From the NCBI GenBank assembly GCA_040285855.1, contig JAUFOQ010000018.1:372001-436000 (forward strand): 64,000 bases of DNA, in the 5' to 3' direction. The position numbers and the translations under genes were made by a program. The notes under the pieces were generated by a model. That model searched no databases. It worked only from the letters and a program-made list of their open reading frames with translations, and was not told the origin of the DNA. Below are positions 8,024-64,000 of this stretch, piece after piece; position 1 is the first letter of the stretch, and every line of letters starts with the position of its first letter. The DNA is from Eukaryota sp. GEM-RC1 (Eukaryota).

Positions 8024-9916
8024 TCAAGCATTTTTCTCCAACGAATGCATCTTCCTTTCTGTCTCAATGTACTTTCGATGAGTGGTCACAATCAACGAGC
8101 AAAGTCGTCTCAATTCCTCTCTCAAGTGAGCTCTATTTTGAACCAAATCTGAGTAAGTAACGTCATCAAGAAGCTTCTCATTAGGTTCAGTATAGGCAGG
8201 TAACGAGATAGAAGGGAGTAGGATGGTATCTGTGGCTTCCGGCAGCTCTTTTAAAATATTTGGAATCTTTTTTAAATGTAGGCTGAGGTTCAATTTGATT
8301 GTCTGTTCTTGCCCCTAAGTCTACAGTGTCAATATCTTTCCCAATTGATTTGTACAGTTGGTATAGAGGACGCATCACTTCCTTATCACTTCGTTGAGGT
8401 TCTCTATTGAATTTTTTAGCAAATTTTAAATCAAACAGTCGAAGCTCTCGTTTCACAGCTGCTTTTTCCGCCTTTTTCTCCTCAGCATTCATCAATTCAA
8501 TTTCCCTCGGTCTTTTGTCTTGAACTCTCATTGCTTCTAATCTGTAATTGGCAACTTCCAAAGGACTTAGGAAAAGAGATCTTGTGAAAGACGGAGCGTA
8601 CCTAAACCTACATAAAAACATTCTAACAACTGACTGGATTTTAATAGCGGCAATATTTTTCAATTTTTTCTGTAAATCAAAATAGTTTTCAAGTTCAGGC
8701 CGTATTGGATCTCGATCTTTGCCGTGGGGTCGTTTTTTAAACATTTGATAAAAATTAGATTCGAAGTCGTGAATTGTAGCTTTGAGAGCAAATATTTGAG
8801 ACTCAATTTCGGGAATATTTCTAAATTTCAAATAATCCAAATATGAAATTTCAACGAATTGATCCTTTGGTTTCGATTTAACAGTGCTTTTTACCTGTTC
8901 CTTTTCAAAATCTTTCAATTTTTCCACATTTCTTTTTGAATTATTATCAGGAATATCTACTTGCTCGTTAATTACCCAACGAGACTGAATATTTTGAATT
9001 TTTGAATTATTTGCTTGAACTATTGAATTATTAACATTTCGAACCAACGGATTTTCTTCAACACAATTCAAAACATTAGCAAAAGTGTCGATTTCCCCAT
9101 CAAAATAACAATCAATCACCTCTGAAACAAGAATCCCAAGAGTTGAATTTGATTGAACACTTGGTGACACCGAAGCATCCAAATCTTCAATCAAATCTGA
9201 TTGATCCGACTCATACTTGCCATCAGAAACATCTTCAGGCAACTCCTGATCAAATATCACGTCGACATTCTGAATCAACAGTTTAAAACTGACCACTAAG
9301 GGTTTCATATCCTTTGGGGGAACCAGGTCAAATTCTGAAGAAGAATCAGAAGCTCGTATAACATTGGGAACAAAGACAAGGGCGAGGTTCTCAGCTGACA
9401 TCTTGTTGTGGTGGTCATATGAAGCAACAAGAGCGAGGAATTGGCAGAGGTAGTGAAGAAGATCCTTGTGGTGAGGGGGGAAGGGAAGCTACAAGAACAG
9501 ACAGTGCTGCTATGAGTTCTGCTGAAGGTTCAAATGAAGGAATGTGGTGTATGGAGGTGGAGAAGAGAGAATAAGGTATGAGAGGATCTCCGAGTTCTCG
9601 AAAGAAAAGTTTGAATAGTCCACATACGTCTTGTGGAGATGTAGTTGTAGAGAAGTGGACGTCCTCACCACTGTCAAAGCGTGATTTTAGATCTAGGATG
9701 TTGGAGACTGTTCCAGGAACTCGAAATAGACCTTTGGTCTTTAGAGCTAAGATAAGGAGTGGAGAGAGTCATACAGTTGTTTTCGATAAATTCCACGCAT
9801 TTCTGAACAACATTGGGTATAGGTAATTGGGAAGGAGGTAGATCTGAAAGTTTACAGCCAAAGATTGGTTGTGTAGCTTTGTGATTACGGGAGGAAGACT
9901 TCCGGAACAGAGGCAT
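8024..9916 (-). CDS. RhoGAP-domain protein with IQ-like motif and coiled-coil C-terminus (FAM13-like architecture)
   Basis: Motifs IFGCKL, IPNVVQKCVEFIE, GLFRVPG, LFKLFFREL.DPLIP, NKMSAENLALVFVPN and IQSVVRMFLCR. One 28-nt intron and two homopolymer frameshifts (~9475, ~8270). Confidence 0.9.
9747..9774 (-). other. 28-nt spliceosomal intron
   Basis: GTATGACTCTCTCCACTCCTTATCTTAG; removal joins ENN-S-LKTKGLFRVPG and restores the RhoGAP arginine-finger region. Confidence 0.9.
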
Positions 9917-11290: not shown

Positions 11291-12526
11291 TTATTCACAC
11301 GTGTTCCTGATTTCATTCAATAATTTTAATAGTGATGCTGCTTCATTAACTCTTCCCAATACATTTGTACAAAGCTGTTGCAATTGCAAAAACACTTCAC
11401 CAGAACACGGCAAGTTCTTATTCCTGAATAAAGATTGTGCCCACACAATTACTAGCCTCGCCAAACGGTGTTGTTGAGAGGTATCAAGATTACTATCAAG
11501 ACAAAACAACGTACTGCTTCTCAAATATTCCAACAGAAACTCGTCACTCAGCAACTCTTTTAAAGCAAGTCTGTTAATACAATCGAGGGTCTTAAGGGAA
11601 GGTGGAAGTGACATTAAAGCAGTGAGGTAGCTATTCTCACTTGAAGAAGAAGAACCAGGGAGAATGTTTAACAAAAACTCCACCGCCGAAATAAAATTAT
11701 TATCTAATAATTGAATAAACTTTTGAGGTGACAGCATAATCTCCAAATCTCTTTTTGAACTAGAGTTCATTAAAGAATTGAGGTTCTCTATTTCTATACT
11801 AGTCAAGGATGATTTACATGCCTTTTCAAGAGAATCTAGAAGGTCAGTACTGGACTCTGATGACTCGATATCTAACCAAAGAGGCATTGGAGGAAGCAGG
11901 GGGAGGGGAAGCCATGGAACAGGGGGGAAGTTCCTTGTTAACCACAGGGATGGGAGGTGGAGGACGGATGTAGACAGGATTGAGTTTAGAGACAAAATCA
12001 CCCATGGACGGAGGTACAGACTTCATGGGAGAGGTGTCAGGGAGAGCCATTGGAACGGGGGGTAAGCGGAGGAGAGCAGGGACTGAAAGGTCAGGTGATG
12101 GTTGTAGGAAGGGTAAGCCAGTACTGTCTTCAGCAGGTGGAAGTTCATTGAGAAGTTGAGATGGAGGTTTGGAGGACGTTTTCGAGGATGATTTTGAAAA
12201 GAGATGTTGTACAAAAGAACGTTCGACGTCTGAGGTGGTTTTTAAACGAACAGCGTCTGCCACTGAGGCTGTGAAAGGATGGTTCTGTGGAAAAAGGTTG
12301 AAAAGTACAAAAAGGCTGGCTAGACGTGAGGCTGCACATAAAATCGTGTCATCTTCCAGTAATATTAGAAGCTGACACCCCCAGAGAACTTTAGAGATTC
12401 TGTGGGAAAAGTTTTTATGAAGGATGTGAAAATTGATGACAGCGGCCGTGAAGTATCCTGAACAGTTGCCAGTAGGGTGCTGTATTGTTCTGAAGAGAGC
12501 ATGGGCGGCGGTGAAGTAGCCGTCAT
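11291..12526 (-). CDS. CNOT11: CCR4-NOT complex subunit 11
   Basis: Motifs YIRPPPP, LMSLPPSLKTLDCINRL, RLARLVIVWAQSLFRNK and EAASLLKLL. Likely start ATG 12526 (MTATSPPPMLSSEQ..). Frameshifts at minus-strand G5 (~12380) and C6 (~11925). Confidence 0.85.
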
Positions 12527-13248: not shown

Positions 13249-15046
13249 ATGGCTTCCCATTGCCCACCGTCATGTTCTCGGTTCATGCTTATTGATGACA
13301 ATGAGTTCCTTTCTCTGTACCCATTCGAATCTATGCCACCATTGTTTATTAATAAACAGACTTCGGTCATTACTGTTGGAGAAGACCTTGAATCTGTTCC
13401 ACGTGCTTATGGCTCAGAAATCTTTGCTATAGCTGGTTTAGTCACTCTGAAATCCTACTCCTTTCTAGTCACTGTATCTTCAGCCAATGTTGTTGGAACA
13501 GTCCTAGGCCATGACATCTGGCTTGCAACATCTTTCTCAGTCATTCCTCTCACTTCATCCTCCAAATCAGACTTTCTCTCTTCTCAACGGCTAGTCTCCT
13601 TAGTTTTTTCAGAAAAAGGTCTCTACTACTCCCCAACTCTTCCCCTCTCCCGCCCTTTCTCTTCCCTTGTCCACAACACCCCAATCTCAAACGAAGATCT
13701 CTTGTCACGTGATCTCTGGTCCCAAACTGACCCCGACTTCTGCTTCAACACTATCCCTGCGAGTCCTTTCCTTACCTCCCCCTCAACACCGTTCTTATGT
13801 CATGCCTCTCACCCAAGGTTTCGTTTCAATTGCCTACAGGATAATCCCTTACACCCACACCCCACTTCACTATCTTCTATTCTCTCGTCGAGATGCTTCT
13901 AATGTTGGGAAAAGGTTTACTAGGAGGGGACTAAATCCAGACTTTTCCACTTCTTGTTCTAATTCTGTAGTGACTGAACAAGTGGTTCTGTCTGATGATG
14001 AGGTTAAGTCAGTATTTACTTTGGTCCGAGGTTCGATTCCATTAAAGTGGAGTCAAATGGCAAATCTTTCTATTAAGCCTGGAATTAAAATATTGGCTGA
14101 CCATGAAAATAATTTAAATATTTTAAAAAATTCAATGGAACGATTGATCAATTCCTTTGGAGGTCCGGTTATCATAATTAATTTACTTGACGATCATGGT
14201 AATGAAAAGGAAATCTCTCAACTTTATGGCGATTTGATCACTTTGGTTAATCTTCCCATCCATTACCACCACTTCAACTTTCACAAAGAATGTGCAAACT
14301 TCAAATACGAAAATGTCTTTGATCTGATCCATTCTATTGAATCAGAACTTGATTCCGTCACGTTTACCTCCCAATCATCGACTCAATCAGGTGTCGTTAG
14401 GGTCAATTGCATTGATTGTCTTGATCGAACCAATGTTGTCCAATCCTCTCTATGCCGCTTCCTTCTCCACAAGCAACTCTCCCAACTAGGCTGTTCTTGT
14501 GTTTCCCTCCCCAAACTCCCTCCTCAAATGGCTCCTTCTGATGTCCAGTCTTTGGGAATGATTGCCTTTGAAAAGAAGTTGGAGGAGGTATTTAGAAGGA
14601 TTTGGGGTGATCATGGTGATGAGTTGGCAGTGCAATATACCGGAACTTTTGCAATGAAGAGAGATTTTACTTTTAAAGGTAAAAGATCCTTATTTGGAGC
14701 GATTGAAGACGGATATTGTGCGTTATCACGTTTTTTCCAGAATAATTTTCACCACGGACTTGTTCAAGATGCTTTAGACGTGGTTTTAAAAGGTCACGAT
14801 GCAGGAAGTTTGTTGGATAGAATGCTTGAATATGAGAGAAGGAGTAAGTTGAGGAAGTATTTGCTCATGTTTATTTTGAGTATTTTTGTTTTAGGTTTGT
14901 TTAAAGGACGATCCGGATTGGTGGTTGTATGTATTTTTCTAGTATTTTTGAAATTTTTCTTTAAAAAGGTAGCGAAACGGTTTACTATCGCACCTTTTGT
15001 CTGCAAATTCTCACTAAATTATTACTTAGATATTAAAAACATTTAA
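13249..15046 (+). CDS. SAC1: SAC1 phosphoinositide phosphatase
   Basis: Motifs LFSRR..G.RFTRRG, RGSIPLKW, catalytic RVNCIDCLDRTNVVQ, QYTGT.AMK.D and two C-terminal TM segments. One frameshift at C5 (~13778). Start is 13249 or 13285. Confidence 0.93.
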
Positions 15047-18205: not shown

Positions 18206-19003
18206 TTACAGCTCATGATTGTCTAGGGATTGCTTATACTGATTGACAGTAAACCCTTTCAGAAATTGACAACCATGTGACATCAATTGGTCATGTATTA
18301 TTACATAATGACGAATAATTTCTGAAACTTCGCCAAAATGTAATAATTTGCGTAAACCTAACTTTTTTGTTTTGAAGAAAAGCAAAGAAGGATTTGGTCT
18401 TTGAAAAACTGAAAATAGTTTTAAAGTAAGAATCACATCTTTCAGACAGTACATGTAGTTGGCTAACTCACTTCTTCCGTCAGCTGTTTCCATCAGAGTA
18501 GAAGTGGATCTGCTGAGTAAAGATTTTCCTTCAGCTAAAATACTCAAGGAAACACTGTTTAGACTGTTGCCAAATTTTGAAGTTGAAATTTTCCTGGCAA
18601 AAGAACAACAGTCTAAGGACGTGGAATTACCAAATATATGAGAGATGGTAGAGTTCCAAGAGGCTGAAAGAAAAGGAAATGAACTCGTATTTTCTGTCTT
18701 ATCTTCATGATTGAAGGTGGTATCAATCTTTAAAATTGAAGCTCTTTTAAGAATATATTGTAGATCAAAGGAATCGGAATAAAAGCCTGAAACAAAATCT
18801 GGTGAAATAGAATTGAAAAAATTGATAAAATTCAAAATCAAAAGGAACTCAGATTTAAATGAAAAAATATTAGCAGCATCAGACTCTAATGCAGAAGTAT
18901 CTCCAACACTAAGCAAATAATTATCTACATTAAAAATCTGTTCATTATTAAAATAACAAAATGAAAAACCAATCGATTGGAACCACAAAACTTCCTCCAT
19001 CAA
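18206..19003 (-). pseudogene. Decayed ORF of unknown function directly upstream of, and co-oriented with, the Fanzor remnant
   Basis: 265-aa ORF. Reading continues past its TAA and, after a shift, into the frame of 17362..18078. Further interrupted coding sequence extends to ~19150. Confidence 0.4.
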
Positions 19004-19540
19004 GAATTTATATCTTTTTTAATGGACATGCTTCAATTGGGTAAATTGGACAGGTCTGGTGCTTCGAGCTTTTTTTCAAAAATCTCGAAGCACCATCTCA
19101 TCAATTCTCGACGGTTGGTCGATCCACAAGCACCATTGTATATTTGCAGGGCTAAGAAGAGTAGGTGTAAATTTTTTTGTTAACTCTATATTGTTCAGAA
19201 AAAAGCAATTGTAACGAAAATTACTTTAGAAGTCTAAAGTGTACTATGCGTAGTTATTACAACAATTATTTGTTTATGACAAATAGTGCACAACCTGACT
19301 TAAAATTCAAAAGAAGCAAACAAACAAACAATATAATTTTAGATAAGCAGTACGATTCTTGAGCAATTGAAACTACAAGTGTTCAATATTTTGGTTTTTT
19401 TGAATCAATGGAAACTGTTTTGGACCAAATCAGAGGTGAGTGTTTGTCCAGAACAAATACTCACTCTAGTGTATATTGTAAGCAAATAGTTCAAGCCATG
19501 TAATATAATGTAGAAAACTTTTCACTCGAATTCTCCTTTC

Positions 19541-30412: not shown

Positions 30413-31120
30413 TCAAACTGTATTTTTACTTAAACCGCGCTTTGAAAACATCTTCTTAACATCAAATCTTAACCTAAAAGCAACAGCACAAGGAATTAAA
30501 GCAGTTGGCCCTAGAAATAGACCAAGAGAGGCAGCAACGGGATTAAAGAGATAACGGAATCCCTCAATAGAAGCAAATACATCACGAGTTGATATAGATT
30601 GGTTTTGCTCAAGAGAACAAGCTTGTGCGAGAGGTTGAAGAACACGGTCTATATAGATCGACGATGGTTTGGAGATGAAAAGAACACCACACAAAAGACC
30701 CCATTTGAGAGACAGGTTAGTCATGAACCTAGACCAGCTTAAAGATACTGTGAATTTCTTTTCGGGTGCTTAACACCATTTTCGCTCCAGACTCCTAAAA
30801 CGTTGTTCACTGTCATTCTTTCTCCTCCTGTGTCATCTGTTTCGATCTTGTTATGCCTTACGGTAACCTTCCTCAACCTCCTAGTGCAATTGCTGTCATG
30901 GAAAACTCGATTGGTTTGATTTGAATTCTTTGAGGTATCATACTTCTTTATATACACTTGTTCGTAGATTTCGCTATACGGTTGCTGTGATTTCCTATCA
31001 CAAAAATAGACACTTCGACTCTCTGACCAGTTTCAGAAAGGTATCCGCCTCTTCTGATTCAATGTCAGCCAGATCCATAGACATAACAACTTCCTCAACA
31101 GGCACTTGGCTACTCTGAGC
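30413..31120 (-). pseudogene. Interrupted ORF chain of unknown function
   Basis: Coding-like segments (PVEEVVMSMDLAD.., 30739..30957, 30413..30724) separated by stops and shifts. Confidence 0.35.
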
Positions 31121-31962
31121 TGAACTCATCACACATATCCTTCGTTCAGGTAGAAACGGTATGAACTCTTTTGGTTAACGAAAAGGATGTTACATATAGT
31201 TGTTTGGATTGAGGGATTCTCTTCAATTTGTCTTATTTTTTGTAGTTGTTGAAAAACTGTCAGAACGTGTGAACATGAATACCCATTCTTTAAGGGATTA
31301 AGATGAACATGATAGGATCTATACATAATAAGAAGTTTTTCAAAAATACAGTGTATTAAAACGTTGTAATATTCGATCGAAAAAATACATAATGAGCTCA
31401 TTATTAATAACACTCTAGACAAATTGATTAACATAGAATCAAAGCGAACATTTACTATACACAACGCTGTCAACTTGATGATTGAGCAAAGAACGAATTC
31501 TTAAGTTGAATCTTATGAGATTCAATCCAAAGGGACTTCTTCGTCTGGATGGATTAGTTGTTGAAGGAGAAGCGAAGTTTGGATAGAATGTCTTCTCATT
31601 AGTAAGTGATTTCCTCATTGGAGAGCCCTAGGCAAAGACTTGAACATCACAAGGGGAAGCAGAGCTAAAGAAACTGTAAGGGAGATCCTAAGAAACAAGA
31701 AGTGGGATGACTAGCAGGAAGTGGTGGGTGTATGGAAGGAATCTAGAAGGGAAGTTGGCAATAGGATACCGAGAGCAAGTGATGTAGGACTAAGAGAGTA
31801 AGAGAGTCAGAGCATTGCAGATACATAGGATAAGAGGACCTAGGACTAGCAAATGACCGTGTAAGACAAGGCTTCAAATTATAAAGGTGTGACTATAACA
31901 GGGGTGGGAAACTCAATATGATGAAAGGAAAGTGATTATGGTTGACCGGAAACTTCGACACC

Positions 31963-33899
31963 ATGGCACAGCCACGTAAGTGTTTCACTCGGTCGTGTGC
32001 TCTGAACTCGCTGCTTATACCTTCAGCAGTTCACCAGATTTCCTCATGTCACCGAAGTCTGCCATGAAGCTTCTTTGCTTCTTCATTCTTTCCTTGTCAC
32101 TTTCCCTATAGCGGCCAGAGCTATTGCGGAACAGGATGTCTGGTATCTCTTTATGACCGTCATCAACAAAAGTAACTTTCCTGCTCCTCAAACTTCGAAA
32201 GGACAAAGGCTTTTGTTGAATGTTTTCTATGATGGTTTTCTTCCAGAGTCCCCTGCTTCTTTTGTTCCTCCTTTTACTTTGGAACACCAAAACTTTTTAA
32301 TTTCTGAGTGGAATTCTGATATACTCACTTATGGGTTACTCCTTCAGAATTTCTTGAACTCCTGGCTAGCCACACAGACCTTTTCTGTGGTGAATAGCCC
32401 TAATCTTTCGCAGTGGTTTACTTGCCGTTCTCGTCAGTTGGCAGCTAATGTTAAGTCTTCTCTGCCCAAAATATCCAGAGCTTGGATTAAAAATTTTCTA
32501 TATGCCCATTGTCGGGTCATTGAGACACCTCGTCAATTTTCTTCGCATCTTCTTTATCTCTTTTATAATCTTCCAGTTAATGCTCCTTCTTTTGTTAATG
32601 TTTCCATTGACAATCAGTCTGAAAAAATCTTTTTACTTAACGCTGTCTACTATATTTTCCATCTTTTCGATCGTTTTCCTGTCTCGGAAGGACTTTTATC
32701 TTCTGCTGACCACATGAATGTTTCTCCTAAAGAAATTCGTGAATTGTTTATTTTTAACCTATCAATTGCACAATTCTTAGAAACAAATTTAACTAATTTT
32801 TCCCATTGTTGGAGACGGCTCCGACTGATCCCCCTAGCTTCTCACAAAGGGTCAAAAATGTTGGATGTACCTCCAAACATCTTCAGAAGCAATGGAAGAT
32901 TCCCTCCAGCTATAGGTACTAAGGCTAATCGATTTTTTATTTTGAACCAGAATTTGAAGAAAATTTTCAAAAATTGTCCACATGAAAAATTCAAAATGTG
33001 GAAGAAAAGTTATAAAAGAAACTACAGAAAGTTAGCTCTCAAATCAAATGGAAATGAGCTTTTGATCACATTTGAACGGACTGAGCCAACCTTGGAGAAA
33101 GAAGGAGAGCCGCCAAAAAAGAAAAAAGAGGCGGACAAAACTTGAGATGCAGCAAGATCCTAAAGCCAACTGCATCAAATCCATCAATTTAAAAGGATCA
33201 AAGAAGAAGCCTCGCCGTCGCCCTCCAACTTCCCAGGAGATTATCCCTGAAGGCCCATTAGTGGGTGTGGATCTTGGTCAGTCACGTCTTTGTGGCTACT
33301 ATTTGAATGAAGAAAACCACGGACTGATCAAGTGTCCTACAGGCCGCCAGTTTCGAACAAACCCTTCTCCTCTCAAAATGTCACCGAACCAATATTCCGT
33401 GCAAAATATTCACCTATATTTGAATCACTGGAATTTAGTAAGAAAACAGGTGTATAAAGAGAGTAACCGGTCGAAGTGGAAGTCGATTAAGTTCGACAAT
33501 CGAAGACGCAGAGAACGACGTTTTCGTGAAGCTCTGAATACTTTTCAAGAGATTTCTGGTCATCCAGAGGAACTGTATCTGGCTGTTGGCTCAGCAAACT
33601 TTCCTTCCCATTTCAGGAAAGTTAAAAGATATGGATCAGCTCGATGCTTTCGGAAATGGCTGAATCACCAAAAAGGAGTAAAGCACTTTCCCACCAGTGA
33701 ATTCAACACTAGCAAACTGTCAAGCTGCTGTATGTCACTAAACGAAGCAACCAGATGGTGGCAAATGAGAGTCTGTGCCAACTGCCATCAAGTATATGAC
33801 AGAGATGTTTCCGCTGCTAAAAATATTCAGACTAGGAAGAAAGCAGAGTTGTGGCCTGGAAGATATGTCTGTCCTGAGGTAATGTCGAGGAGAGTCTAA
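31963..33899 (+). CDS. Fanzor1 (TnpB-family RNA-guided endonuclease), ~640 aa, two frameshifts
   Basis: ATG 31963 MAQPRKCFTRSCALNSLL; shift ~32040 into HVTEVCHEASLLL..LIPLAS..KSNGNELLITF; shift ~33120 into GVDLG (D 33270), LAVGSA, SEFNTSKLSSCC (E 33699), CANC and DRDVSAAKNI (D 33804). Confidence 0.9.
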
Positions 33900-34200
33900 T
33901 GGAGAGATAGGTAGAAATGATAAACAAAACCACTTTGAGACCGATCTGGGGAAGTATCTATCCCGGTAGATATGTTTGTCAGATCCATTTAGATAGATTA
34001 AGTCTAAGAAACTTTGTTCTGTGTAAGCAGTGTAAGCTGTGTAAGCAGTCGGTCTATCTAAGTGATGTAGCCCGTTGATGAAGATCATGATTGTCTTTGT
34101 CAGATGACGCTATATGTCTCTTACAACCTGTGAAAACAGGAGTGAATTTCATAATTGGGAGTAAGCAGTTGTTATGAAATTCACAGTAGACAAAAGATCA
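33900..34200 (+). ncRNA. Candidate Fanzor omegaRNA scaffold region
   Basis: Four stem-loops directly 3' of the Fanzor ORF: 33954-33973, 33986-33999/34051-34064, 34127-34140 (GAAA loop) and 34142-34184. Boundaries are unknown. Confidence 0.55.
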
Positions 34201-34883
34201 ACATTCTTCTACCTTCCACTTATTCAAACCAAGACATCCGGCTATATCATACACTATACCCTTGTGGTCTTAGCTGGATTCTTCATCACATCGGATCTTC
34301 ATGATTGCCGAGGTTAACATAACAAATGCTTGCTTTCTTCTCTTAGCTGGATCTTTCGCTTTTCGGAAACAAAAACCAATGGTTTATACAATGACTTAGC
34401 TGATCTTTTCAGCCACTTCTTCAGTTTCCAAGACACACTTGTCTCCTTCTAAGTTTGCTGATTCTTTTTTCAAGAAAGTTTTCTTTTAAGTATTTTATTC
34501 TTTTAAAATAAGTCTCATTTTGTGATCTCCAGTGGGCTTGAACTAATTTAAACCATCTTTTAAACTGATCTTTCAATCAACCTAACACTTATACTAGAGG
34601 TGCTTTATTTACAGATGTTTTAAATTTTTTAAACAACTGAAACATCTATGATCTACAACACTTCTGTTTATTCTTCTTCCCATATATAATTTTTAAGTAT
34701 TTCAATTTTAGATCATTAACATAAGATTTCAAGTGTCAGATTGCTTATTTGTGTTATTAAATTTCAAATAAAGACAAAGATCTCATACATATAAATATAG
34801 ACTTGAAGTGACTAGTTGATTTTATTTCTTAAACACACATATTTGAAACCTTTAAAAGACCTCAATTATTGGAAAACATTTGG

Positions 34884-40911: not shown

Positions 40912-43900
40912 TGTTAGTGTCATGACTCATCAGGACCTATGATTTATAAAATTCACTTAATCTCTCTTACATGGTACCTAAGACCAACAATAATTATTGT
41001 GGCCTCTGCAAAGAGTTACAATGTGTATGTACTCCGGAGAACTTCACTCCTGGAAACAAAACTAACCCAAACCTAGTTCCGACCTAGGTGATAACCCACA
41101 ATCCAGGTCCGACCTGGACTCTAAACAAAACCCTAGTTCCGTCCTAGGTGAAGATTCCAGTTCCGTTCTGGCTTCTTCCAAGTCTTCCACCGTGAAAGAA
41201 CTTGGTCCAGATGGACTCCCCTGGGACGACACTGTTGACTATGACATTGTTTCGGATGAAGAACCTTCTTCTAATGGAACTTCGAATGAGAAACCATTCT
41301 CTATCGAAAACCCAAATGAGGATCCATCCCCCAATATAACTATAAACGAGGAACCATCCTCCAATGTTAATGAAAACGAGGAACCATCCTCCAACAGAAC
41401 ACCCGCTTCTGAGTCAAATCCACCTGTTGGATGGACTTATCGACCTTCGGTAACTTATCCCAATAGTACTACACCTCCTATTAGGACACCGGAACCCTTT
41501 ATTCCGAAATTACCCCCTACACCATTAGGTTTCGTGATGCCGTCTAAAGATCCACGAGCACCTCCACCTTTACACGCTAAGAGTCCCTGGAGAGAGCCGA
41601 TGTGAAGATGTTTGGTTCTATTGATAAAGATCAATGGAGTCACTTTCAAAGACAATCAGTAAACAATGCTGAGTCATACGGTTTTGTAGAGACAGACCAG
41701 TATCTACTTAAACCAGCCAGAACACTAAAAAGGTATTGGCAACACAAAGCTAACGGATATATCCCCCTCGACCCTGAGGTTTCGAACATCCATGACAGTA
41801 ACGACAGACTGATGGGCTTTATAATGGATAAAACCCGTCCAAACTCCCCTTGTTACTGTGGAACAAGCTTACAACCTCCTACGGAACCCGCTTCCTAAAG
41901 ATCAAGTAGAGGCGATCGAAAAGCAAGTAGACAACCTCGAAAGATACGCCACTGTGAACAGCTTCTTCCACAGAAAACCCACGGTAAATACCAACCCCGC
42001 GGATACCGTTCCTCCCTTGGTAGCCAACACTCCTTATGTGCCCGGCGGATTTGTTTTTGCAAGAAAGCCCCACGCACCGATCACCCCACATCCCAACGAA
42101 CTTCCACATGACCACATGCTGGAAGAGGATCACACTGCTACTAGAATTGGAGCTCTATCAGTCTCACCTGAACCGGTTACTCCAACTCAATCCAGGTCCA
42201 ACAGTCCCAACACTGACGTAATCACACCGTACTCAGTACTGAAATTCGCTGAACGGTTACCAACTGACTCCTCCAGTGACCTGAACAAGTTGATGAAACC
42301 GACATCACTTCACATTCTGGATGACGTGGATGTAATGCTTAATTGGATTGCTGATTACATGAACTTCTGTACCGCCCAGAAGGACTATACACTACCAGCA
42401 TCCACACCACTCGGAGATCCCAAATACTTCTTCGACATTGGAAGGATTGCTGCCAAAGAAGCCGACACCCGCTGGGTCTCTCGACTTGTTGCTTACCCGG
42501 TTCAACAACAGATGAACTATCTAGGTACAGCAACGACTTCCAGTGATGAACTCTTCCGACAGATCATCTTAAGAACCCAGTTTAAAGACATCTTGACCGC
42601 GAGAAACAAACTAAACGAAGTTCAGATGAACTGGTCGATCCAAGATTATGACCAAAGATGGCTCGACTTCATCAAACGATTTGATAAAGTGCTTAACCGA
42701 AGTACACTGATTAAATCCCCCTCGGAACCTTCCTACACGATGCTGGACGAAAGAACCATCAGCAAGGCTCTTTTGACTAACATCGGTCTCACCTCCCTCT
42801 ACCTAGAATTCTGGCCCAAATGGAAAGACTCCAAGGATTTACACTCCTTCTTTTCAATAATCCTCGAACACTATTACCAATGGTGCAAAAATGGACAAAC
42901 GGTCCCACCCATGTTCAACTTGAACAAAAGAATGTGGAAATTCTCATGCACAGAGACAAGGATTCCTGGACCGACATCCCAAAAGCAATCCAACGCCCAG
43001 CATCCAAAATTTTCGCCCCAGGAAATTTGAAGTCTAAATCATCTTCAAAGAACCCTCACAATGCAGCCCCTCCTTTCAAAAAGAAGCATCGCTCAAACTC
43101 ATCTGATAGACCTCCTAAAGATGATACTGCTGTAGCTTCTGCGACTCCCCGGATCACAAGATAAACCTTTGTAATCATCCTGACTGTCGTAGTAGCGAGC
43201 TCCCCACAAATCAACGTCTTCCACGATCTGAGGCAAAGAAACCTCCCACTCGTAGTCATAGTTCGCGTAAACATAATAAACATAGTAAGTACTTCGTTCA
43301 ATCGATAAATACCATTCACAATGATAACACATCATCGTCGGATTCACATAATCCATACATAAACCCACTCCACAACATCAGTAATTACTAATTCGAGTGG
43401 TACGAACTCACTAAGCCTGAATTCAATATTCAGCATAATCGATCACCAGGGTCCACCACCACCATTCCTCAGCTGCAGTCTGACCATCAATGGTGTTTCG
43501 ATTCAGGGCCTATGGGACAGTGGAGCATCAATGTCCGTAATCACACAAGACCTGGTCGATAGATGTTCAATGAAGTTCACTAACAAGAACGTCCCATTCA
43601 CATCTGCAAACAACGTCAGATCTCACTCACTGGGTAGCGCCCAAGGGATCTTGACCTTCAAGTTCTGTAAGGTGACACACCTAATATCTGTGACGAAGAC
43701 TTTACCTATCATCCCCGGATCCAACAAATGTTTGTTAGGTATTGATCTCATGAAGCAGTAAGGTTTACTGACTGAAGAGGAACTAATCATCCCGGTTCAA
43801 CAGACTATGCTCATAGCAACGACGAGTCAGAGTTCGACTCAAACATATCTATGCCCAATAGCCTTTCTATTATAGACAATATAGATTTCAATAAATTTGT

Positions 43901-46900
43901 TTATGATTCCGGCTGTTCAATCAAATTAGATGACGATGACAGAACCAATCGTTTACTGAACCTCCTTAGCGAGTTCTCAGCTATCTTCGATTCCGTTCCC
44001 CACAAAGATGGCATCGATTGTCCACCGATTACAATTGACTTCCACGATGAAGAGTCCACGGTGAAACGAAAACTTCGGGGGCCTAATCCAGTCAAACAAA
44101 GGATAGCTGAAGAAACTTTTCATGAACTAGTACGTTTGGGATACGCTGAGTATACTTCACCCCACGGAAAATTCAGCTCCCCGGTAGTACTTGTAGTCTA
44201 CCCCGATCATCGTAAGCCTAGACTTACTGGTGACTTCAGTGGTACTGGAGAAGTCAATGAACTTACTAATGTTGTCGAACCGAATCTACCGAGAATCGCA
44301 GACATACAAGAATTTCTGAGTGAAGCTAATTACATAGCCACTCTCGACCTGCCAAAAGCATTTTGGCAACTGAATCTGCGGATCACGAACGTGACAAGAC
44401 AACTCTAGTCATCCATGGCCTAGCCATTCGATTTAAACGAGCTTGTTTTGGCCTAAAGAACGTACCTGCAATCCTTCAAAACTTGATGATGGATATATTC
44501 GACCACGAAGGTATATTCATTTACATCGACGACATCATCATAGTCGCTAAGACTTTCGATGAATACTTATGTAGAATAAAATTCGTTCTTGAGAGAGCTC
44601 AACTTTATAGAGTCAACCTTGGCTTACACAAGTGCAAGTTCATAATAAAGAATCGTCCTATAACTATCTTAGGTTGCGAATACATCGACAACAGGCGTCG
44701 AATCGATTCAAAACGTGTAGAAGCTCTGGTAAACATACGAACACCGACCACCATCAAAGAAGTTCGAAGTTTCGTCGGTTCTATCAACTACATTAAAAGA
44801 CATTAAACTACATCAAAGATTTAATAGCAGATGCATCTGACTTACTAGCTCCCATTATAGCCCTAGTAAAGAACAAAGCACGAACAGTTCACTGGACACC
44901 TCAACTCCAATCAAATTTTGATGAGATCAAAAGAGGATAACCAATCACATACCCCTATGTCTACCAGACAAAGACAGAGGCATACTGATTAGCGTAGACG
45001 CCAGCGATATCGCCGTAGGTGGTGTCGTCTGGTTGGAATGCACTCCTCATTCACCTGAGGGAACTCCACTGAACGAACGCAAAGTAGAACCACTAGCATT
45101 CTACAGCAAACTACTCACTGACTCTCAACAGAACTGGGCCACGATCCAAAAGGAATTGTACGCCATTCTCCTGATTCTAACCGAATCCCAACTGTCGTCA
45201 TACCTTATCAGCAAGGAATTAACGATCTTCACATATCATAAGAACCTCGCTTACTTAATCTCAGCACCCGAAAAGAATAGGATGGTCAAAAGATGGATCC
45301 CTATCCTCAGCGAATACCTATTCACAACAGTCCACACCAGTGGCGAAGACAACCATTGGGCTGACATGATGTCACGCAATGTTATCAAAGACGCACCAAC
45401 TGAGTCTATAAACAACATAGTCACATATTGCCCAGAGCATTTGTTCTCTATAACCGATAGCCGATGTCCTATTGATGAGGATACGGAATATCAAACTTTA
45501 TCAACAGAGTCAATCAACATGATTGACGATGCTCTGATCAACAAATCGAAGTTATTCGACGCCTGGCTTTCGAACGTACGCTATACACAAGTAGAAACCA
45601 TCAAAAATAACGATCCATTGTTCCATCACCCGTCGACTTGGTTCAATGAAGAGTTCCAGCTACACATGAATAGCAACAACAAGATCTTGATACCAAGTGC
45701 CTTGGTGAAAACCACCTTTAACCACTTACACGGTTTTCCACATGCAGGTCATCCTAGCATTAAAGATACATTGATCGGCTAAAATTTAGTGACTACTTCT
45801 GACCCAGCATGATCAACGACATGAAAACTCACTGCAGGCAATGTCCAGCTTGTCAAAAGATAGCTCCCCTTGCCAAAACAACTATCAAATCTTCAGGTAA
45901 TTTATGGTCCGACAAACCATTTGCAAAGATGAACGTCGACACTATAGGAGCACTTCCCACTGACACATCGGGAAACATTTACTTACTAGTGTTCATAGAT
46001 TCCTTCACCAGATTCACAATCCTATGTCCACTAAAGGAACTGAATGCTCATGAGACAGCATTTTCGTTAGTGTGTAACGTTTCCGCCACCTTCGGCATTC
46101 CAGATCTCATTCATAGTGATAATGGCAAAGAATTTGCTAATCACGTTTTCAATGACGTCTGCAATCAATTTGACATCACAGCTAATAAATCTGTACCTAG
46201 TTTCTCTCCTAGCAACGGGTTAGTTGAACGTCGACACAGAGACATCCGACAAGCTTTACGAAAGATGCTCATAGACTTCAATGACTATGACAACTGGAGT
46301 AAATACATCCCACTAGTATAACTGCTGGTAGACACTACGAAGAGTAGAGTTACCGGCTTTACACCGTACGAACTGATGTTTGGTTCTAACACCAACCCTG
46401 GTAGTGATCCAAGTAAAATCATCTCGTGTCTCACTCAGAACAAGATTTCAGAAGATTCCTTTCTAGCTGATTACCAATCAAAATTAACAAGAATTTTGAA
46501 AAAACGGGAAGAAGCAGAAACCACCCAATCATCTATCAAACCTTCCATTACTACAGTTGATACACCCTCGCTATTTGCTATCGGGGACTTAGTACTACGA
46601 AGTAACAAAGCAGCCAAGAAGCTTCATGGCAAACAAGAGGGACCGTACCTCGTCATCGATATCCCTTCCAAAAGCTCACTTGAACTGCGGAACTTTGTCA
46701 CCGGACATCGCTTCTGCTCCAGCATTCATCTATGTACCAAGTACCTTTCCGACAAACGCTCCTCCGACGAGTTCCACAAAGCAGTAGCATCTTGTGACTC
46801 TGAAGAAATGGTCATCATCCAGATCCTTGATCAACGTGAATCACCTACAGGTCCCATATGTTCCGTCGTATGGTTTGACGGCGATACTACTGAGGAACCC

Positions 46901-47175
46901 CTAAGTCTGGTTAAGAACACTAAGGCTTACTCAAGTTTTATTAAACTAAATCTTCACGCCAAACTCACATCTAAACCCAAAGGTAAATCCAGAAGTACGC
47001 GTAATAGAAAGGCGATCCCTAGTAACACTCCTGATTCCGTCATTCTCACTACTCCACCTGCCATGAGGAGTAGGTCCTCGAGAAAGGAGAAGAAGTAATG
47101 TTGTCATGACTCATCAGGACCTATTTGTATAATAAATTCACTTTTATTTCTCTTACATGGTACCTAAGACCAACA
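40912..47175 (+). mobile_element. Ty3/Gypsy chromovirus-like LTR retrotransposon, degenerate
   Basis: LTRs 40912-40989 and 47099-47175 (TG..CA), 4-bp TSD GAAT, PPT 47080-47095. Domain order PR (LWDSGAS) - RT (LDLPKAFWQ, YIDD) - RH (DAS) - IN (GHPS, CPAC, SDNGKEF, NGLVER) - chromo-like (VVWFDGDTTEEP). Stops and frameshifts present. Confidence 0.95.
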
Positions 47176-48192: not shown

Positions 48193-49553
48193 ATGAGTTT
48201 TTCTTTTGGACAACCCACAACTCAACAACAAACCACAGGGTCAACACCATCTTTTTCTTTTGGACAACCCACAACTCAACAACAAACCACAGGATCAACA
48301 CCGTCTTTTTCTTTTGGTCAATCTCCAACTCAACAACAAACCACAGGGTCAACACCATCTTTTTCCTTTGGACAACCCACAACTCAACAACAAACCACAG
48401 GGTCAACACCATCTTTTTCCTTTGGACAACCCACAACTCAACAACAAACCACAGGGTCAACACCATCTTTTTCTTTTGGACAACCCACAACTCAACAACA
48501 AACCACAGGATCAACACCATCTTTTTCTTTTGGACAACCCTCAACTCAACAACAAACCACAGGATCAACACCATCTTTTTCTTTTGGACAACCCTCAACT
48601 CAACAACAAACCACAGGATCAACACCATCTTTTTCTTTTGGACAACCCTCAACTCAACCTCCAAGTTCTCTGCCTTCTGCCGCTCTCACTCTTCGTCACA
48701 TCACCTCTACTCATCATCTCTTATCCCTATCTCCTATGATCGCGTTTCAACTCATCGCTTCTGCTTATGATCATGGTCCTGCAGGTGTCTTCAAATGGCT
48801 ACTTTTCTCAAAGAAAACTCAACCAACAACTTCTACCTCTTCCTTTGGTGGTTTTGGTGCAGGCTCATCTCTATTTGGAGGCACGTCTTCTTTTGGAACT
48901 TCTTCTTTTGGAAGTTCTACTACAAGCGGAGCTAATCAAATTGTTACTGAGAAACCATCTGATATTGACATGACAATGTGGAGCAAAGCTTTGGAACGGA
49001 ATCCTAATCCATCAGAATACGGCATTGTCGTGATAAGAAGTCCTCAAGATTTGATCAATAGAGTGACTAAACAAAAAGAAACTGTTAAAACTCAATTGAG
49101 CTCAATTGAAGAGATCAAAAGAAAGTTTTTGATTTACAGTCGAAAATCGAGTCTGAATTGTGGAACAAGATTTCTGAAATCAGAAGTGGGCAAGTAAGTA
49201 CCTTTCATCGCCTTCTAAATCTGGCTGCTTTGATTGATGGAACAGCTGGAAGAGGAAGGCCTTTGACTTCTCAAGAAATCGTGCTTTCATCACGTTTACT
49301 TTCCATTCAAAAGTCTCTAGAAGGACCACAGAGTTTAAAATCACGTCTTCGAGAACTTTTGCCTAAAGTCTTGGCCTATGAAAGTGACTCTGCGAAACTT
49401 GTTTGTTCATTTGAGGTGGATGAATCTAGTATGGATATTGTTGGCAAAGTGCTTGGAAACCAAGGAAGAACTTTGGGGGTAATTATAGATATCTTCCAAA
49501 AGACCACGGCTATTGTTAATAAGATGAATACGGAGATTGAAAGGTTTACATAA
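48193..49553 (+). CDS. NUP54: FG nucleoporin Nup54
   Basis: N-terminal FSFG repeats; KP..ID...W..A...NPNP......I....DL..R...Q Nup54 core; coiled coil continues in 49158..49553 after a frameshift at A4 (~49117). Confidence 0.85.
48196..48657 (+). repeat. 54-nt coding tandem repeat, 8 full units plus 1 partial (SFSFGQPTTQQQTTGSTP)
   Basis: Direct inspection; period 54 nt. Confidence 0.97.
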
Positions 49554-53309: not shown

Positions 53310-55292
53310 CAGGGGTCGGGAAAAAATATTTCTATTGCAATATTTAAATATTTTTCATGAAAAATATTTATTTTTTGTACACGTAGATAAAAAATATTTA
53401 TTTTAATCTTTTGCAATACTGTATTTATTGCAATTATTATTTTTTGGAGTAAAAATAAATGATTTGTTGAGATGAAGAAAATGATACATAACAGAAGATG
53501 TGAAGTTCATTTTAACTATTCTGTTCTTGCTATGTCTCTCAAGCCTAAGGATACGGCCAAATTCTACTTTCGGAAGGTTACTCCAACCCCAAACAACTGC
53601 CCTGAACACAAAGAAGCTTGGCAATGTCGTCTTTGTCCCAACATGATCCCCCCTGTATATTCAGCCAAGAACTGGATACACGTACACAAATGCCACCCAA
53701 ACTTCAACGAAGAAATGATCGCCGCCAAAAACAACGCAACCATCAGTCGATTCTTAACACCTGTTTTGCCAGACAAGCCGCACAACATTTTCCGATGGCT
53801 GGAATGGTGTATTGAGAATCAAATGGCATTTACATTTGTTCAAGATCCAATGATTCAAAAAAACTGCAATCTTGACCCAATTGATGTTAAGACATTGGTG
53901 AAGTACATGAGACTCTTGTACACCGAAGTTTGTGCTAAGGTAGCCCAGTTGTTGCCTGAGGAATTTGGACTGATGTTTGACGGATGGAAGCACCCAACAG
54001 GAACCACAGAGTTCGTTGGGATGTTTGCGTGTTTTCCGCAGAAGAGTAGACCAGTTTTACTATCTCTGTTTCCGTTCGAACTGGACGAGGTTTATGACGA
54101 GAGCAGTCCATTTAAATCATCCAACGTTGTATTTGGTGCCGAACAATACAAAGAAAGAATCGCTATTGTGTTGTCAGCGTATGACAAAACTGTAGATGAC
54201 TTACTGTTTCTCGTTGGAGACAGCTGTGCTACCAACACTCGTCTTGCAGACATACTGTGTATACCTTTGATTGGTTGTGCTTCGCATAGATTTGCAAATG
54301 AAGTCAAGAAATTTTCTGGTGATTTAGATCCCATTTTGAAAGACATTGATGATCTTTTCACTCAATTGAGACATATCAAAAACACTCTCGTTCTGAAAAC
54401 CAACACTTCCTTGAGACCTTTGAGGCGGAATTCTACAAGATGGTGGTCTACCATTGCTATGTTGAAGAGATTTTTTCAATACATTGATAGAAAGTCCTTT
54501 GATCTCTTTGACGAAAGTGTCACTCAATTTGTCCCTTCTTTTTCTGAACAGCAACGTTTGAAAACATTGATGAAACAATATGAAACTTTTCATGTGCTCA
54601 CGCTTTATCTTCAGCGGGAAAGCATTCCTTTACACCAAATTCACGCTTCACTGGAACTTTTTCATCAAAGATTTCCCACCATGAATCAATACACAAGCTA
54701 TCCTAGCAGTAAACAACACAGCCCTGTGTTTGAATCTGCTATCATCAAAATACTAAATGGTCATGAAGACAGACTCTCAACAGCTGAACAAACCAGTGTT
54801 GCGTCCTTTCTTAAAGAGGATGTGGAAGAAACCGATATTGAAGAAGAGGATGGCGACAATGACGAAAATGAAGAGTCAGATGTTACCAATTTCGAAGGTG
54901 CACTTGATTCGAATGGCCAACCCGACAAGCCAACCAGTAAGTACATTGATTTGAAGTGGATTCCAGGTACTTCTAATGTATTAGAACGATTGTTTAGTAG
55001 GGCTAAGCATACATTAGGAGATTACCGATGTTCTCTGTCAGATAGCAGTTTAGAACAGCAATTGTATCTGTTGTACAACAGAGATCTTTGGAACGAAGAC
55101 GATGTAAGAAAAATTATTTCTAAAAGACCCTAAAAGAGGAAAATTTTGATACTGTTATATATAAAATATTTAAATATTTATTGCAATTTTCTACTTATTG
55201 CAATATTTATTTTTTGAGTATATTTTGAAAAAATATTTATTGGGCAATAAAAAAATACATTATTTTATTTAAATATTTTTTCCCGACCCCTG
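53310..55292 (+). mobile_element. Autonomous hAT transposon
   Basis: Perfect 22-bp TIR CAGGGGTCGGGAAAAAATATTT; 8-bp TSD GTTTACGG (53302-53309, 55293-55300); ATATTTATT subterminal repeats. Confidence 0.97.
53472..55133 (+). CDS. hAT transposase, intact
   Basis: BED-like CRLC..H...H, FDGW (D), VGDSC (D), CASH (CxxH), TRWWST and LERLFS (E). Start is 53472 or 53532. Confidence 0.95.
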   Translation: MKKMIHNRRCEVHFNYSVLAMSLKPKDTAKFYFRKVTPTPNNCPEHKEAWQCRLCPNMIPPVYSAKNWIHVHKCHPNFNEEMIAAKNNATISRFLTPVLPDKPHNIFRWLEWCIENQMAFTFVQDPMIQKNCNLDPIDVKTLVKYMRLLYTEVCAKVAQLLPEEFGLMFDGWKHPTGTTEFVGMFACFPQKSRPVLLSLFPFELDEVYDESSPFKSSNVVFGAEQYKERIAIVLSAYDKTVDDLLFLVGDSCATNTRLADILCIPLIGCASHRFANEVKKFSGDLDPILKDIDDLFTQLRHIKNTLVLKTNTSLRPLRRNSTRWWSTIAMLKRFFQYIDRKSFDLFDESVTQFVPSFSEQQRLKTLMKQYETFHVLTLYLQRESIPLHQIHASLELFHQRFPTMNQYTSYPSSKQHSPVFESAIIKILNGHEDRLSTAEQTSVASFLKEDVEETDIEEEDGDNDENEESDVTNFEGALDSNGQPDKPTSKYIDLKWIPGTSNVLERLFSRAKHTLGDYRCSLSDSSLEQQLYLLYNRDLWNEDDVRKIISKRP

Positions 55293-56659: not shown

Positions 56660-59600
56660 TTACATAAAGTTCCGATTAAAAGAAATCTTGGATTTAGATG
56701 TCGGCAAACAAGTGGCTTTGCAATGTTACAAGCTTGTGTCACAGGAAAAATTAATCGTATTCTTCGAGATCTTCTTCTTGAAGTGACTTGTAATTATTCA
56801 AATTTTAAATTTATTCAATTTCGCTCAGTTCTTCATAATGCTGTAAGAGATGTTACATTTGAAATGTTTAAGGCTCATGGATTTCATGTCAAAGTTGAAC
56901 CTTTATTTAGTAAGTTGGGTCTTGATTTAATTAATAATTCTCGTCGAGGTGACTTACATGGTCCTTTTGTTGATTCTAGTCAAATTATCCTTGATGTTAT
57001 AACAGTAGATCCATGTGCTCAAACTTATGTTAATGGCTTGAATTCAAAAGGTTTTAATCACCTAGAAACAGCTGAAAACCGTAAAATTGATTTGTATTCC
57101 AAAGATGCTGCTAAACTCAATCAAAATGTATATATATTCAAAATTTGTATTTGTTCCATTTGCTATTTCTATTTTCGGTAGTATTGGTGAAATGGCTTCC
57201 AAGTTTTTAACTGATTTTGGATCTATGTGTAAGTCTCAGAATAAGAGATTTAACTTATCAATTTGGCATAACCGTTTGTTTTCTTTGTTCCGTTCGGTGC
57301 CTAAGTTCTTTGAATCAATTTTCACAAAGTTGTATAAAAACTGTGGTACTTTTGACCAGGAATTTTCGGTGTCTAGTGTTTCATAGCTTTGATTATGATA
57401 TGTATTTTTGTACCCTCCATCAATAAACTGTCTTTATTATTCAAGAAATTTTGGCAAAATGAAAACAAAATGTATATGTAGTTTAGTAGGCAATGGTGAT
57501 TCATTACCTGTTCATTGTTTGAGTTCAGCAGAATTTGGTGGAATTGGATTCTCAAAAGCAAAATATTTACCCGAAGGGTCCTTTCTAGGATGTCTCATGA
57601 ATTCTTCATATTAATATCGTGAACTTTTCAAAGATTGTTGGACTGCTGGTGGTATATATTGATCACAATGTTTGTGCTTCTGAGTTTGAATAATTTTATC
57701 GAAAATCTTAATGCCGAAGTATGGTTTCCTGTTTCAGTGAGTCAATTCCCAAGACGCTCTATTTTCTCACTTCCAATGGGCTTTTTTTAACGGACGTTTC
57801 AAGTGCTGGTGCGTCTTCTTTAGTCATTCGCTATCCTCAACGCTTCAATTTTAATTTGAATGATCAAGAATGGGTAATTAATATGCGTTTGAGATTGGGC
57901 CTCTGGCGTAATGGTCTACTTCAACAGTCTAAGTACATCTGTAGTGCTTCAAAGCATGCTTCATTTCATCACATTGTTAATTGCCCTGAATTTATTCAGA
58001 TGAGATCTGTCCTTCACAACAGTATTCGTGATCAATGTCTTTCTTTATTTAAATCAAACGGATTTCATGGTAAAATTGAACTTCTATTGTCCGCGTTTTC
58101 TGATTCTTTCATTCGTGATAAGAGTCGTGATTTAATTGGTCCATGCTTAAATTGTGAAGAAGTTGTTTTGGATTCCCCCACTGTGGATCCATGTAATGAT
58201 ACTGCTAGTAGCAAAACATTGTATGATCCATTTCATATTTAATTGATAGTGTTGACCAGGGCCTACGGAAAAATATTTGTATTTAAATATTTACAATAAA
58301 TTATTTTATTTATTTTTTCAAGTTGGGTTTCTCCATTATGTATTTTGTGAAAACAGAAAATAAAAAATTATTTTTATATTTTTTGCTCTCTCACCGGACA
58401 ACGTATGAAGGTGAAAACTGCAACATGTTGCAGTCCGTCACATTTTCAACTCAGTACGGTCTTCATCATGTACTGAGACTAGATACAGAACTCATTGCAG
58501 TAGAAAAGCGTACACTTTCTAAACTATTTTGATTCGATTTTAAACTGTCTCTTTGAATTGAGCATGAATATGAGATGATGTAGTGGTCATGGTAGCTCCT
58601 TTATTAGTCGAGCTCAGATAAATTTCTAGTCGATTTCTAGTCGAGTCGAGTCGAGTCGTGCACAGGTCTAAATTATATTGGTAATGTTGGCAAAATTAAG
58701 GAGACTTTATCACATAAGAATAATTGTGTCTTTCAGCAGCTTAACTAAATCGATAGATCATTGATCTAGATGTAGGCAAACAAGTTTCTTTTGCTATGCT
58801 GAAGTTTCTTTTGGTGGTAAAATTAATCACTTTTAACGTGGTTTACCGCCTGAACTAACTCTCGAATTATCTCGTAATTTTAATTCATTGCGCACAAATT
58901 TTGTTAGTTATCTGGTTGGTAACAAAGACTCTTCACTTCCTTCTCATTATTTCACTTCTACTTCTTTTGGTGGTATTGGTTTCCAAGAAAGATAAGTACA
59001 TGCGTGATGGTGCCTTTTTTGGGGTCTTTAAAGAAGTTTTTGTTTGAATTTCAGAATCGTTATCCTGTGTCATGGAAAACGAACGATTCTTTACTTCACT
59101 CACCTTGTACATGGTTAATTAGTCTTCAAAATTTAATTGATAGTCTTGACTCCAATTTGTGGTCAGATTTATTTCCTGTCGGGGTAACAGAAATTCAGCA
59201 GAGAAGCATTTTCTCTTTGCCTTTGTGTGTTCGTAAGTTACAGATAAAGTTTGTTTTGTTTCACGAAAGCTTGGACTTTAAAAACCGTATTAGCTTGGCT
59301 AAGACTAAGAGTCCCGTTTTTTGTGCTTTTTTGAATGATATTTCTTCAAGTGCTGCGTCTCCATTTGTTTCTCGTTTGCCAAGAAAATTTTGTTTTAATC
59401 TTAAGGATCATGAATGGCTTAACATGATACTTAGGTTAGGTTTATGGATTTCAGGTCTTTTGAAGCATTCTCCTGTGACTTTGTGGTCGTTCAAAGGCTT
59501 CAAATTTTCATCATTTAGTTAACTGTCATCAATTTATTCATTTTGGGTCAATTATTCTCAACAGTATCCGGGATACATGTTTGGATATGTTTAAGGCTAA

Positions 59601-63700: not shown

Positions 63701-64000
63701 TGAAGCAGACTTCCTAGTAGGGCAATTACGTCGATCATGACCACCCAGTTTGCACACACCACACTTTCTACTAGACTCATGCATCGATTCAGCAACAACT
63801 GGCCGAGAAATACAAGTATTATCTGACGATGTAAGACCAACCAAAGGAATACAAGCAGAAAAATTCGGAGCAATTGCCTCATTCAAAACATTCTGAACTA
63901 ATGGACTTATAGAAGAGGAAGATTTAACAGAAAAAATAGCTGTACTTCCATCAAAAACAGAAGATACAACCTTAGAAGGAGGAGAAATAGAACGAAGAGA
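60720..64000 (-). mobile_element. CRE-clade non-LTR retrotransposon (RT plus restriction-like endonuclease), 5' end beyond window
   Basis: Zn knuckle CGVCKLGGHDRRNCP; RT motifs AAGPSG, KPNGGVRPIAVGE, IDFKNAFN, GVKQGDPLGP and YADD; CSC..H...C, RGDL..D and AEKLKHTKY; several frameshifts. Confidence 0.92.

Follow-up and report, generated by a model that had tools for sequence, protein, structure and literature searches.

A twice-frameshifted copy of a multicopy, Fanzor1-like gene in Eukaryota sp. GEM-RC1 and its probable origin in a non-autonomous transposon

Within the 64,000-nucleotide stretch of Eukaryota sp. GEM-RC1 DNA analysed here, hereafter the window, a forward-strand locus at 31963..33899 is best explained as a twice-frameshifted copy of a multicopy Fanzor1-like gene. 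We consider it probable that this copy is dead at the protein level and belongs to a non-autonomous transposon, the intact copies of which would be RNA-guided DNA nucleases. Of this account, what has been observed is that the gene is homologous to Fanzor1 and has the RuvC triad and two breaks, that paralogues have full-length models, and that the 3' region folds and the flanks lack a transposase. Because Fanzors are already known and widespread, and the window copy is probably broken, the locus itself is ordinary; its family departs from the published DPG fingerprint and has a trimmed REC2.

Reading frames and the two breaks

The coding span and its interruptions, together with comparable interruptions in host genes, are as follows.

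31963..32040, + strand: N-terminal piece of the coding sequence, the 26 codons that precede break 1
32040..32042, + strand: break 1, 11 nt absent relative to paralogues (RSDI, four residues), giving a +1 shift
32042..33121, + strand: middle piece of the coding sequence, comprising the helical REC region and WED strands
33122..33127, + strand: break 2, an A6 run where the paralogues' PPKKKKRRTK implies A5
33128..33899, + strand: RuvC/TNB piece with DLG D 33270, Glu 33699, SSCC/CANC zinc finger, D 33804 and stop
9430-9510, 11880-11970, 13750-13830 and 49100-49200: host 1-nt frameshifts in RhoGAP, CNOT11, Sac1 and Nup54, respectively

The span opens with an ATG at 31963, closes with a stop at 33897-33899, and occupies three frames separated by two +1 shifts. 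A sequence-only reading had proposed a joined product of about 640 residues lacking nonsense codons; reading through with an X for each break yields 644 aa, free of internal stops. The start codon, RuvC triad (GVDLG D 33270, SEFNTSK E 33699, RD D 33804) and cysteine motifs (SSCC at 33720, CANC at 33774) likewise sit where that reading had placed them. The canonical RuvC-II site is Gly (33588), with the alternative Glu at 33699. The C-terminal piece passes the Pfam Cas12f1-like_TNB cut-off (29.9 bits against 26.3), and in protein-language-model features its nearest clusters (0.96) are mostly eukaryotic and giant-virus proteins with this same domain.

The N-terminal piece, whose frame runs on to a stop at 32065-32067 (34 aa), is 93-96% identical to residues 1-28 of four paralogues. 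It likely carries the first WED strand, as judged from a non-significant alignment to Fanzor1 and the assignment of SpuFz1 K25 as a WED residue (PMC10432273). The notion of a Fanzor1-like N-terminal half is accordingly plausible by eye, but that half alone is not significant (hhalign E 0.084; it ranked 5th and 6th of 402 in comparison with shuffles). The middle piece lies in an ORF at 32006-33145 and is 97% identical to residues 31-396 of the paralogue P0131. Annotated alone, it is a 330-aa protein starting at Met 32153, with an exact match in the protein collection; a product from this Met would lack the first 67 residues, among which the non-significant alignment places the first WED strand. 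Three other family models begin at the same Met and two stop at the same A6 run near 33670, features for which common lesions and systematic error cannot be told apart.

The two breaks differ in kind. Both had been placed at T or A runs, which is correct for break 2; the longest run in the DNA around break 1 (~32041) is only TTT, and 11 nt are absent. Here P0131, P0135, P0122 and P0133 all read QIRSDIPHV, whereas the window reads QI and then PHV in the next frame; family proteins from a second species, Eukaryota sp. TZLM1-RC, also keep four residues at this site, as QIR(T)DLP. The earlier caution that the first shift might hide a small deletion was therefore well placed. Break 1 is likely a real lesion on this comparison and, because it is an 11-nt loss of residues kept by paralogues rather than a homopolymer slip, the copy is probably a pseudogene. 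An intron at break 1 was ruled out, as the paralogues hold more residues there, not fewer.

Break 2 falls within the basic stretch PPKKKKRR, which is NLS-like by sequence, and, like the 1-nt host-gene shifts at runs, is likely an assembly error. Homopolymer shifts in host genes, already remarked on from the letters alone, are confirmed by Pfam domains split by frame in Sac1 (1-120/123-304), RhoGAP (15-106/103-147) and Nup54 (1-70/57-138), and by inspection at a C6 run in CNOT11. These four 1-nt breaks at runs, three +1 and one -1, indicate that the assembly has indel errors. Programmed +1 frameshifting in the host was rejected: beyond runs, no motif is common to the breaks, and one of them is -1. 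Separately, the Nup54 reading frame contains a 54-nt tandem repeat at 48198-48658.

That the copy is intact in the cell, both breaks being assembly errors, is improbable. Four host genes do have 1-nt run shifts, three of them +1 as at break 2; two of the five C6/G6 runs in the window are located at such host breaks; and private substitutions in the copy are few, with nonsense codons absent. Repeats also polish badly in assemblies. Nonetheless, break 1 removes 11 nt from non-homopolymer sequence, every host break (4/4) needs no more than 1-2 nt, and the host introns, at 26-30 nt with GT..AG borders (in RhoGAP, ASF1 and flavin reductase), are unable to supply the absent residues. The suggestion of a gene intact in vivo thus suits break 2 and is weakened by break 1, and "possibly functional" would fit the paralogues better than the window copy.

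Placement among Fanzor and TnpB proteins

Searched alone against the PDB, the family profile matched no solved Fanzor, only the zinc-finger ends of Cas12m and TranC, and TnpB models matched only the last ~55 residues of the family, far under their cut-offs. For this reason we built a profile, A4, from 26 full-length giant-virus/metagenome Fanzor1 proteins, chosen for diversity among viral/metagenome contig proteins with an E[FY]NT[ST]K-zinc-finger motif; all have TDG and the alternative Glu. A4 finds SpuFz1 (E 1e-65), PpFz1 (1e-65) and GtFz1 (5e-48). Aligned to A4 with HHalign, the family profile A2 gave a probability of 97.6% and an E of 2.9e-12 over 266 columns (P0131 residues 334-633), pairing SNG with TDG, DLG with DPG, G with G, E with E, and RD with RD. 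A4 also scored 5/5 family members at 36-40 bits, against 2.4 for the best of 102 shuffled or reversed controls. These comparisons bear out the Fanzor assignment, as a divergent Fanzor1-like protein matching from WED through RuvC. An AlphaFold model from a nine-sequence family alignment was unusable (pLDDT 31.7). Some 45 giant-virus/metagenome loci (among L001-L055) carry full-length Fanzor1 proteins of several clades.

Measured against published definitions, the family agrees in part. The superfamily order D-X(125,275)-[TS][TS]-XX-zinc finger-X(5,50)-RD (PMC3627910) is present in P0131 (D440, T586-S587, R617-D618) and equally in the window. In Fanzors the RuvC-II Glu sits at an alternative position, six residues ahead of the zinc finger, and the canonical site is Gly or Pro (PMC10711439, PMC10530073); this Glu is essential in ApmFNuc (PMC10530073). 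In the family, E583 and G546 fall in columns that are invariant across 31 Fanzor1 rows. The C4 zinc finger (CxxC...CxxC) is incomplete: in both species the first pair is SSCC, Ser taking the place of the first ligand with an additional Cys alongside; the second pair is intact. Fanzors are described as having DPG at RuvC-I "near exclusively" (PMC10711439), whereas the window and the family members covering the site have DLG, except for one DLC. In WED, the TDG column reads [ST]NG, Asn replacing Asp. Of the paired, kinked REC2 helices that, with an enlarged REC1, characterise Fanzor1, the second aligns and the first is ~26 residues shorter, leaving a gap after RuvC-I. Fanzor2/IS607 would be marked by a linked serine recombinase TnpA and an N-terminal HTH; the flanks contain no Pfam family, and no HTH match was obtained. 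We file the family as a Fanzor1-like variant, not as a member under the Fanzor fingerprint.

With DPG, TDG and the first zinc Cys all altered, the activity of intact copies may be low or limited to binding. A Fanzor in domesticated or regulatory use that binds DNA under RNA guidance without cutting would accommodate these altered motifs and the shortened first REC2 helix, but is distinctly unlikely: all three full-length models, which span two species at 58% identity, retain the D-E-D triad, and a high copy number with many broken copies suits a selfish element. The least probable of the alternatives is an independent eukaryotic capture of a TnpB with D-hydrophobic-G and the alternative Glu, rather than a Fanzor1 with a Pro-to-Leu change. 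DLG with the alternative Glu marks a separate TnpB clade (PMC10711439), the zinc finger is as short as in TnpB, and in a quick unrooted tree with no outgroup and with P0146 excluded, the family branch lies more than 3 changes/site from 31 sampled Fanzor1 rows. Against such a capture, the reach of TnpB models is confined to the C-terminal end, while the Fanzor1 profile aligns from WED to RuvC-III and takes in a TDG-like motif and a REC2 helix; the length, 646-651 aa, is Fanzor1-like; and two family searches found no prokaryotic relative, a further one giving a single 59-aa match.

A second, unrelated canonical Fanzor1 lies on the minus strand at ~18135-15790, heavily broken into pieces in several frames, closely downstream of an exonuclease fragment from a family-B DNA polymerase (18206-19018). 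Its pieces match A4 (E down to 1e-15) and PpFz1 (8.6e-5); DPG is kept, but the remaining two catalytic positions are Gln and Asn. Direct comparison of the family profile with these pieces gave no match.

The gene family and two versions of a WED segment

The read-through search recovered five family proteins among 3243 candidates; their clusters hold 11 members from GEM-RC1 and 82 from TZLM1-RC (15 of the 82 among those listed), plus singletons. The family thus numbers, in these related anaerobic protists, at least 13 NCBI proteins labelled GEM-RC1 and 84 labelled TZLM1-RC, although loci may be fewer than proteins, since several models may stem from one broken locus. A second search with the RuvC half returned the same family only (3/198 candidates), neither search yielded prokaryotic relatives, and one further search gave the single 59-aa match; viral and metagenome contigs searched for related loci contained none. 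Full-length models number 2 of the 13 GEM-RC1 proteins seen (P0131, 648 aa; P0135, 646 aa) and 1 of the 17 from TZLM1-RC (P0142, 651 aa), all three with the triad; paralogues are known as annotated proteins alone, in which predicted introns could mask breaks. Identity of the GEM-RC1 family proteins to a full-length member ranges over 84-98%. The window copy shares 97% of its residues with P0131, and over 540 positions it has 3 changes of its own, where eight other rows have 1-11; the family is therefore young.

The host is eukaryotic, as seen from Sac1, RhoGAP, CNOT11, Nup54, ASF1, syntaxin and short GT..AG introns in the window. The nearest named relatives of the window's cap methyltransferase are from Eukaryota sp. 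TZLM1-RC (54%), which NCBI lists as unclassified, and TZLM3-RCL (50%). From the name "Skoliomonas sp. GEMRC" in a paper on free-living metamonads (PMC11316075), we infer a skoliomonad-type host. Literature searches found no paper on the family and none joining Fanzor with metamonad or Skoliomonas. Two family motifs are absent from the supplement of PMC10711439; those of PMC10432273 and PMC11423790 may list more Fanzors. The family is not the first Fanzor from its supergroup, because the PMC10711439 supplement includes a DPG-type metamonad match, from Carpediemonas.

One part of the gene stands apart from the rest.

32888..33076, + strand: variable WED segment, version A (P0131 residues 313-375), with SNG as the equivalent of the Fanzor1 TDG motif

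P0131 and P0135 differ at 25/64 residues within this segment (taken as residues 313-376) and at 11/584 elsewhere (Fisher p 1.5e-19, with bounds set post hoc). Version A is carried by the window copy, P0131, P0122, P0132, P0136 and P0126, and version B by P0135, P0127, P0128 and P0130, some covering the segment partly. Each version is ~50% identical to TZLM1-RC (33/68 and 34/66), so the two versions parted early compared with the remainder of the gene, a pattern that suggests recombination. By profile alignment it extends from just after an IDT-like strand to just past the TDG-like strand. The matching SpuFz1 interval, described as variable with the TAM (PMC11423790), includes R291, a residue placed by counting, which contacts the TAM (PMC10432273). 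We hypothesize that the segment swap would act as a TAM switch; REC-side TAM contacts are apparently unchanged between versions.

P0131 and P0135 are therefore a natural pair whose differences are nearly confined to the WED segment, the part proposed to vary with the TAM (PMC11423790), and make the evolution of Fanzor TAM specificity directly testable. The family could yield a compact editor with a swappable TAM module, and the intact-looking paralogues are better test objects than the window copy. A bolder scenario, which we rate as rather unlikely, has a Fanzor with DLG and a short REC2 spreading in free-living metamonads, swapping its 64-residue WED cassette to change TAM among copies otherwise 97-99% identical, with dead copies serving as guide donors.

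Downstream RNA, element ends and known relatives

The DNA around the gene contains structures that may define an omegaRNA and the ends of the element.

31506..31525, + strand: 8-bp hairpin, candidate left end (end model H2)
31777..31787, + strand: left 11-bp direct repeat, which may represent a target-site duplication (end model H1)
33931..34064, + strand: likely omegaRNA core, two abutting stem-loops (33943-33985 and 33986-34064)
34060..34070, + strand: right 11-bp direct repeat, exact copy of 31777..31787
34065..34186, + strand: additional structured DNA with a 13-bp hairpin (34142-34184) at its end; more omegaRNA plus element end, or flank

The fold of 33940-34064 has a z of -4.99 (0/200 shuffles as stable) and that of 34065-34189 a z of -4.57, against -2.0 for the next window and +0.8 and +0.9 for coding and upstream controls; the tested windows were placed around hairpins, and blind tiles reach z <= -4 in 2 of 128 cases. 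The TZLM1-RC protein P0145 reads past its stop as FETDL, which is the window translation at 33934-33948, so the start of the 3' region appears conserved. On the strength of the fold and this apparent conservation in a second species, the 3' non-coding DNA is likely an omegaRNA; Rfam gave no match at gathering level.

The sequence-only reading had seen no TIR, TSD or transposase around the gene. No Pfam family occurs in any of 12 flank frames and no TIR was found, in keeping with that view, whereas the 11-bp direct repeat and related end hairpins qualify what was said of the ends. H1 and H2 are both post hoc and read from one locus. H2, in which the hairpins at 31506-31525 and 34142-34184 bound the element, has in our judgement an even chance. 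The 3' half of the left hairpin matches an arm of the right at 11/12 nt, and such hairpin positions number 23 in the window; hairpin-ended Helitron2 carriers of Fanzor1 in Chlamydomonas provide a precedent (PMC3627910). A Helitron2 element would be recognised by hairpins at its two ends, with asymmetric inverted repeats that are conserved from copy to copy.

H1, a tentative second choice, places the element at 31788-34059 with an 11-bp target-site duplication and no TIR, as in Mucor MCi-2, whose TSDs are 11-12 bp (PMC3627910). Its scaffold would end inside the repeat, the first five bases forming the TAM and the remainder starting the guide. The exact repeat lies at the end of the second stem, with a null rate of 1.3% (21/1619 positions), both predicted folds pair its first five bases, and the length of 2272 bp resembles that of SPu-1 (~2.1 kb). 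Set against this, strong folding continues over the following 125 nt, the stems meet without a gap at 34064|34065, the upstream purine-rich tract continues through the left repeat, and the most open reading frame fails to carry across the joined flanks, an inconclusive-to-negative empty-site test. The abutting stems and the purine-rich tract are why H2 is favoured. A 13-bp inverted repeat at 30746/34176 was ruled out as a TIR, its left arm lying inside an apparent upstream host coding frame.

Beyond the gene on the minus strand, one frame of 34071-34370 has 2 stops/100 codons against 8 and 10 in the others; with a further hairpin near 34230-34290, it is possibly decayed coding or element sequence. 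Upstream, ~31128-30413 (-) is a frameshifted, protein-like frame with no Pfam family. Elsewhere in the window are a frameshifted LTR retrotransposon with aspartyl protease, reverse transcriptase, RNase H and integrase (~41000-47100, +) and a broken reverse transcriptase element (~60800-63740, -) with many partial copies across the window. Two stretches, 53463-55133 and 57712-58242 (+), are possible DNA transposases; the matches are weak, to a hAT dimerisation domain (E 0.006) and a GTP-binding domain of P-element-like type (E 0.1).

By analogy with studied systems, an intact copy of the Fanzor1-like family would bind omegaRNA from the element's 3' end plus flank. The RNP would recognise a TAM through REC and the variable WED segment and cut the empty allele beside it; repair templated by the filled allele would then keep the element. 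A transposase encoded elsewhere would move the element in trans; slightly favoured is an enzyme of the rolling-circle, Helitron2-like kind, for which the hairpins at ~31506 and 34186 would be the ends. Since the deletion separates the first WED strand from what follows, the window copy is probably unable to give a working protein, yet it could supply omegaRNA in trans, as the protein-less "ghost" loci of S. punctatus (PMC10432273) can.

Known systems share parts of this picture. The DPhiG/Ealt TnpB clade (Yoon et al. 2023) has DLG, the alternative Glu and a D-to-E spacing of 120-160, within which the family's 143 falls; the family differs in its eukaryotic host, ~250 additional residues, Fanzor1-type WED/REC2 features and absence of the first zinc Cys. 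Among mobile elements, SPu-1 has the TIR and TA TSD that the locus lacks. Mucor circinelloides MCi-2, with a TSD and no TIR, would fit the 11-bp repeat, but is much longer, carries Crypton remnants and has a TSD pattern starting ATAATT; the repeat at the locus may be chance. The Helitron2-type CRe-1/2/3 elements of Chlamydomonas are likewise non-autonomous and without TIRs, with related hairpins at putative ends and T on either side. In contrast to them, the matching segment at the locus is an arm of the 3' hairpin rather than upstream of it, the gene is single-exon, a RepHel partner was not seen and the ends are putative. Finally, Fanzor1 itself (SpuFz1, PpFz1, GtFz1 and giant-virus proteins) differs from the family, at 13-17% identity, in DPG for DLG, TDG for [ST]NG, CxxC for SSCC, the ~26 REC2 residues after RuvC-I and a longer zinc-finger spacer, which is minimal in the family. 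It is alike in its length of ~640 aa, RuvC-II Gly with an alternative Glu before the zinc finger, RD at RuvC-III, TDG-like WED motif, structured downstream RNA, and occurrence as a single-gene, multicopy element without a transposase.
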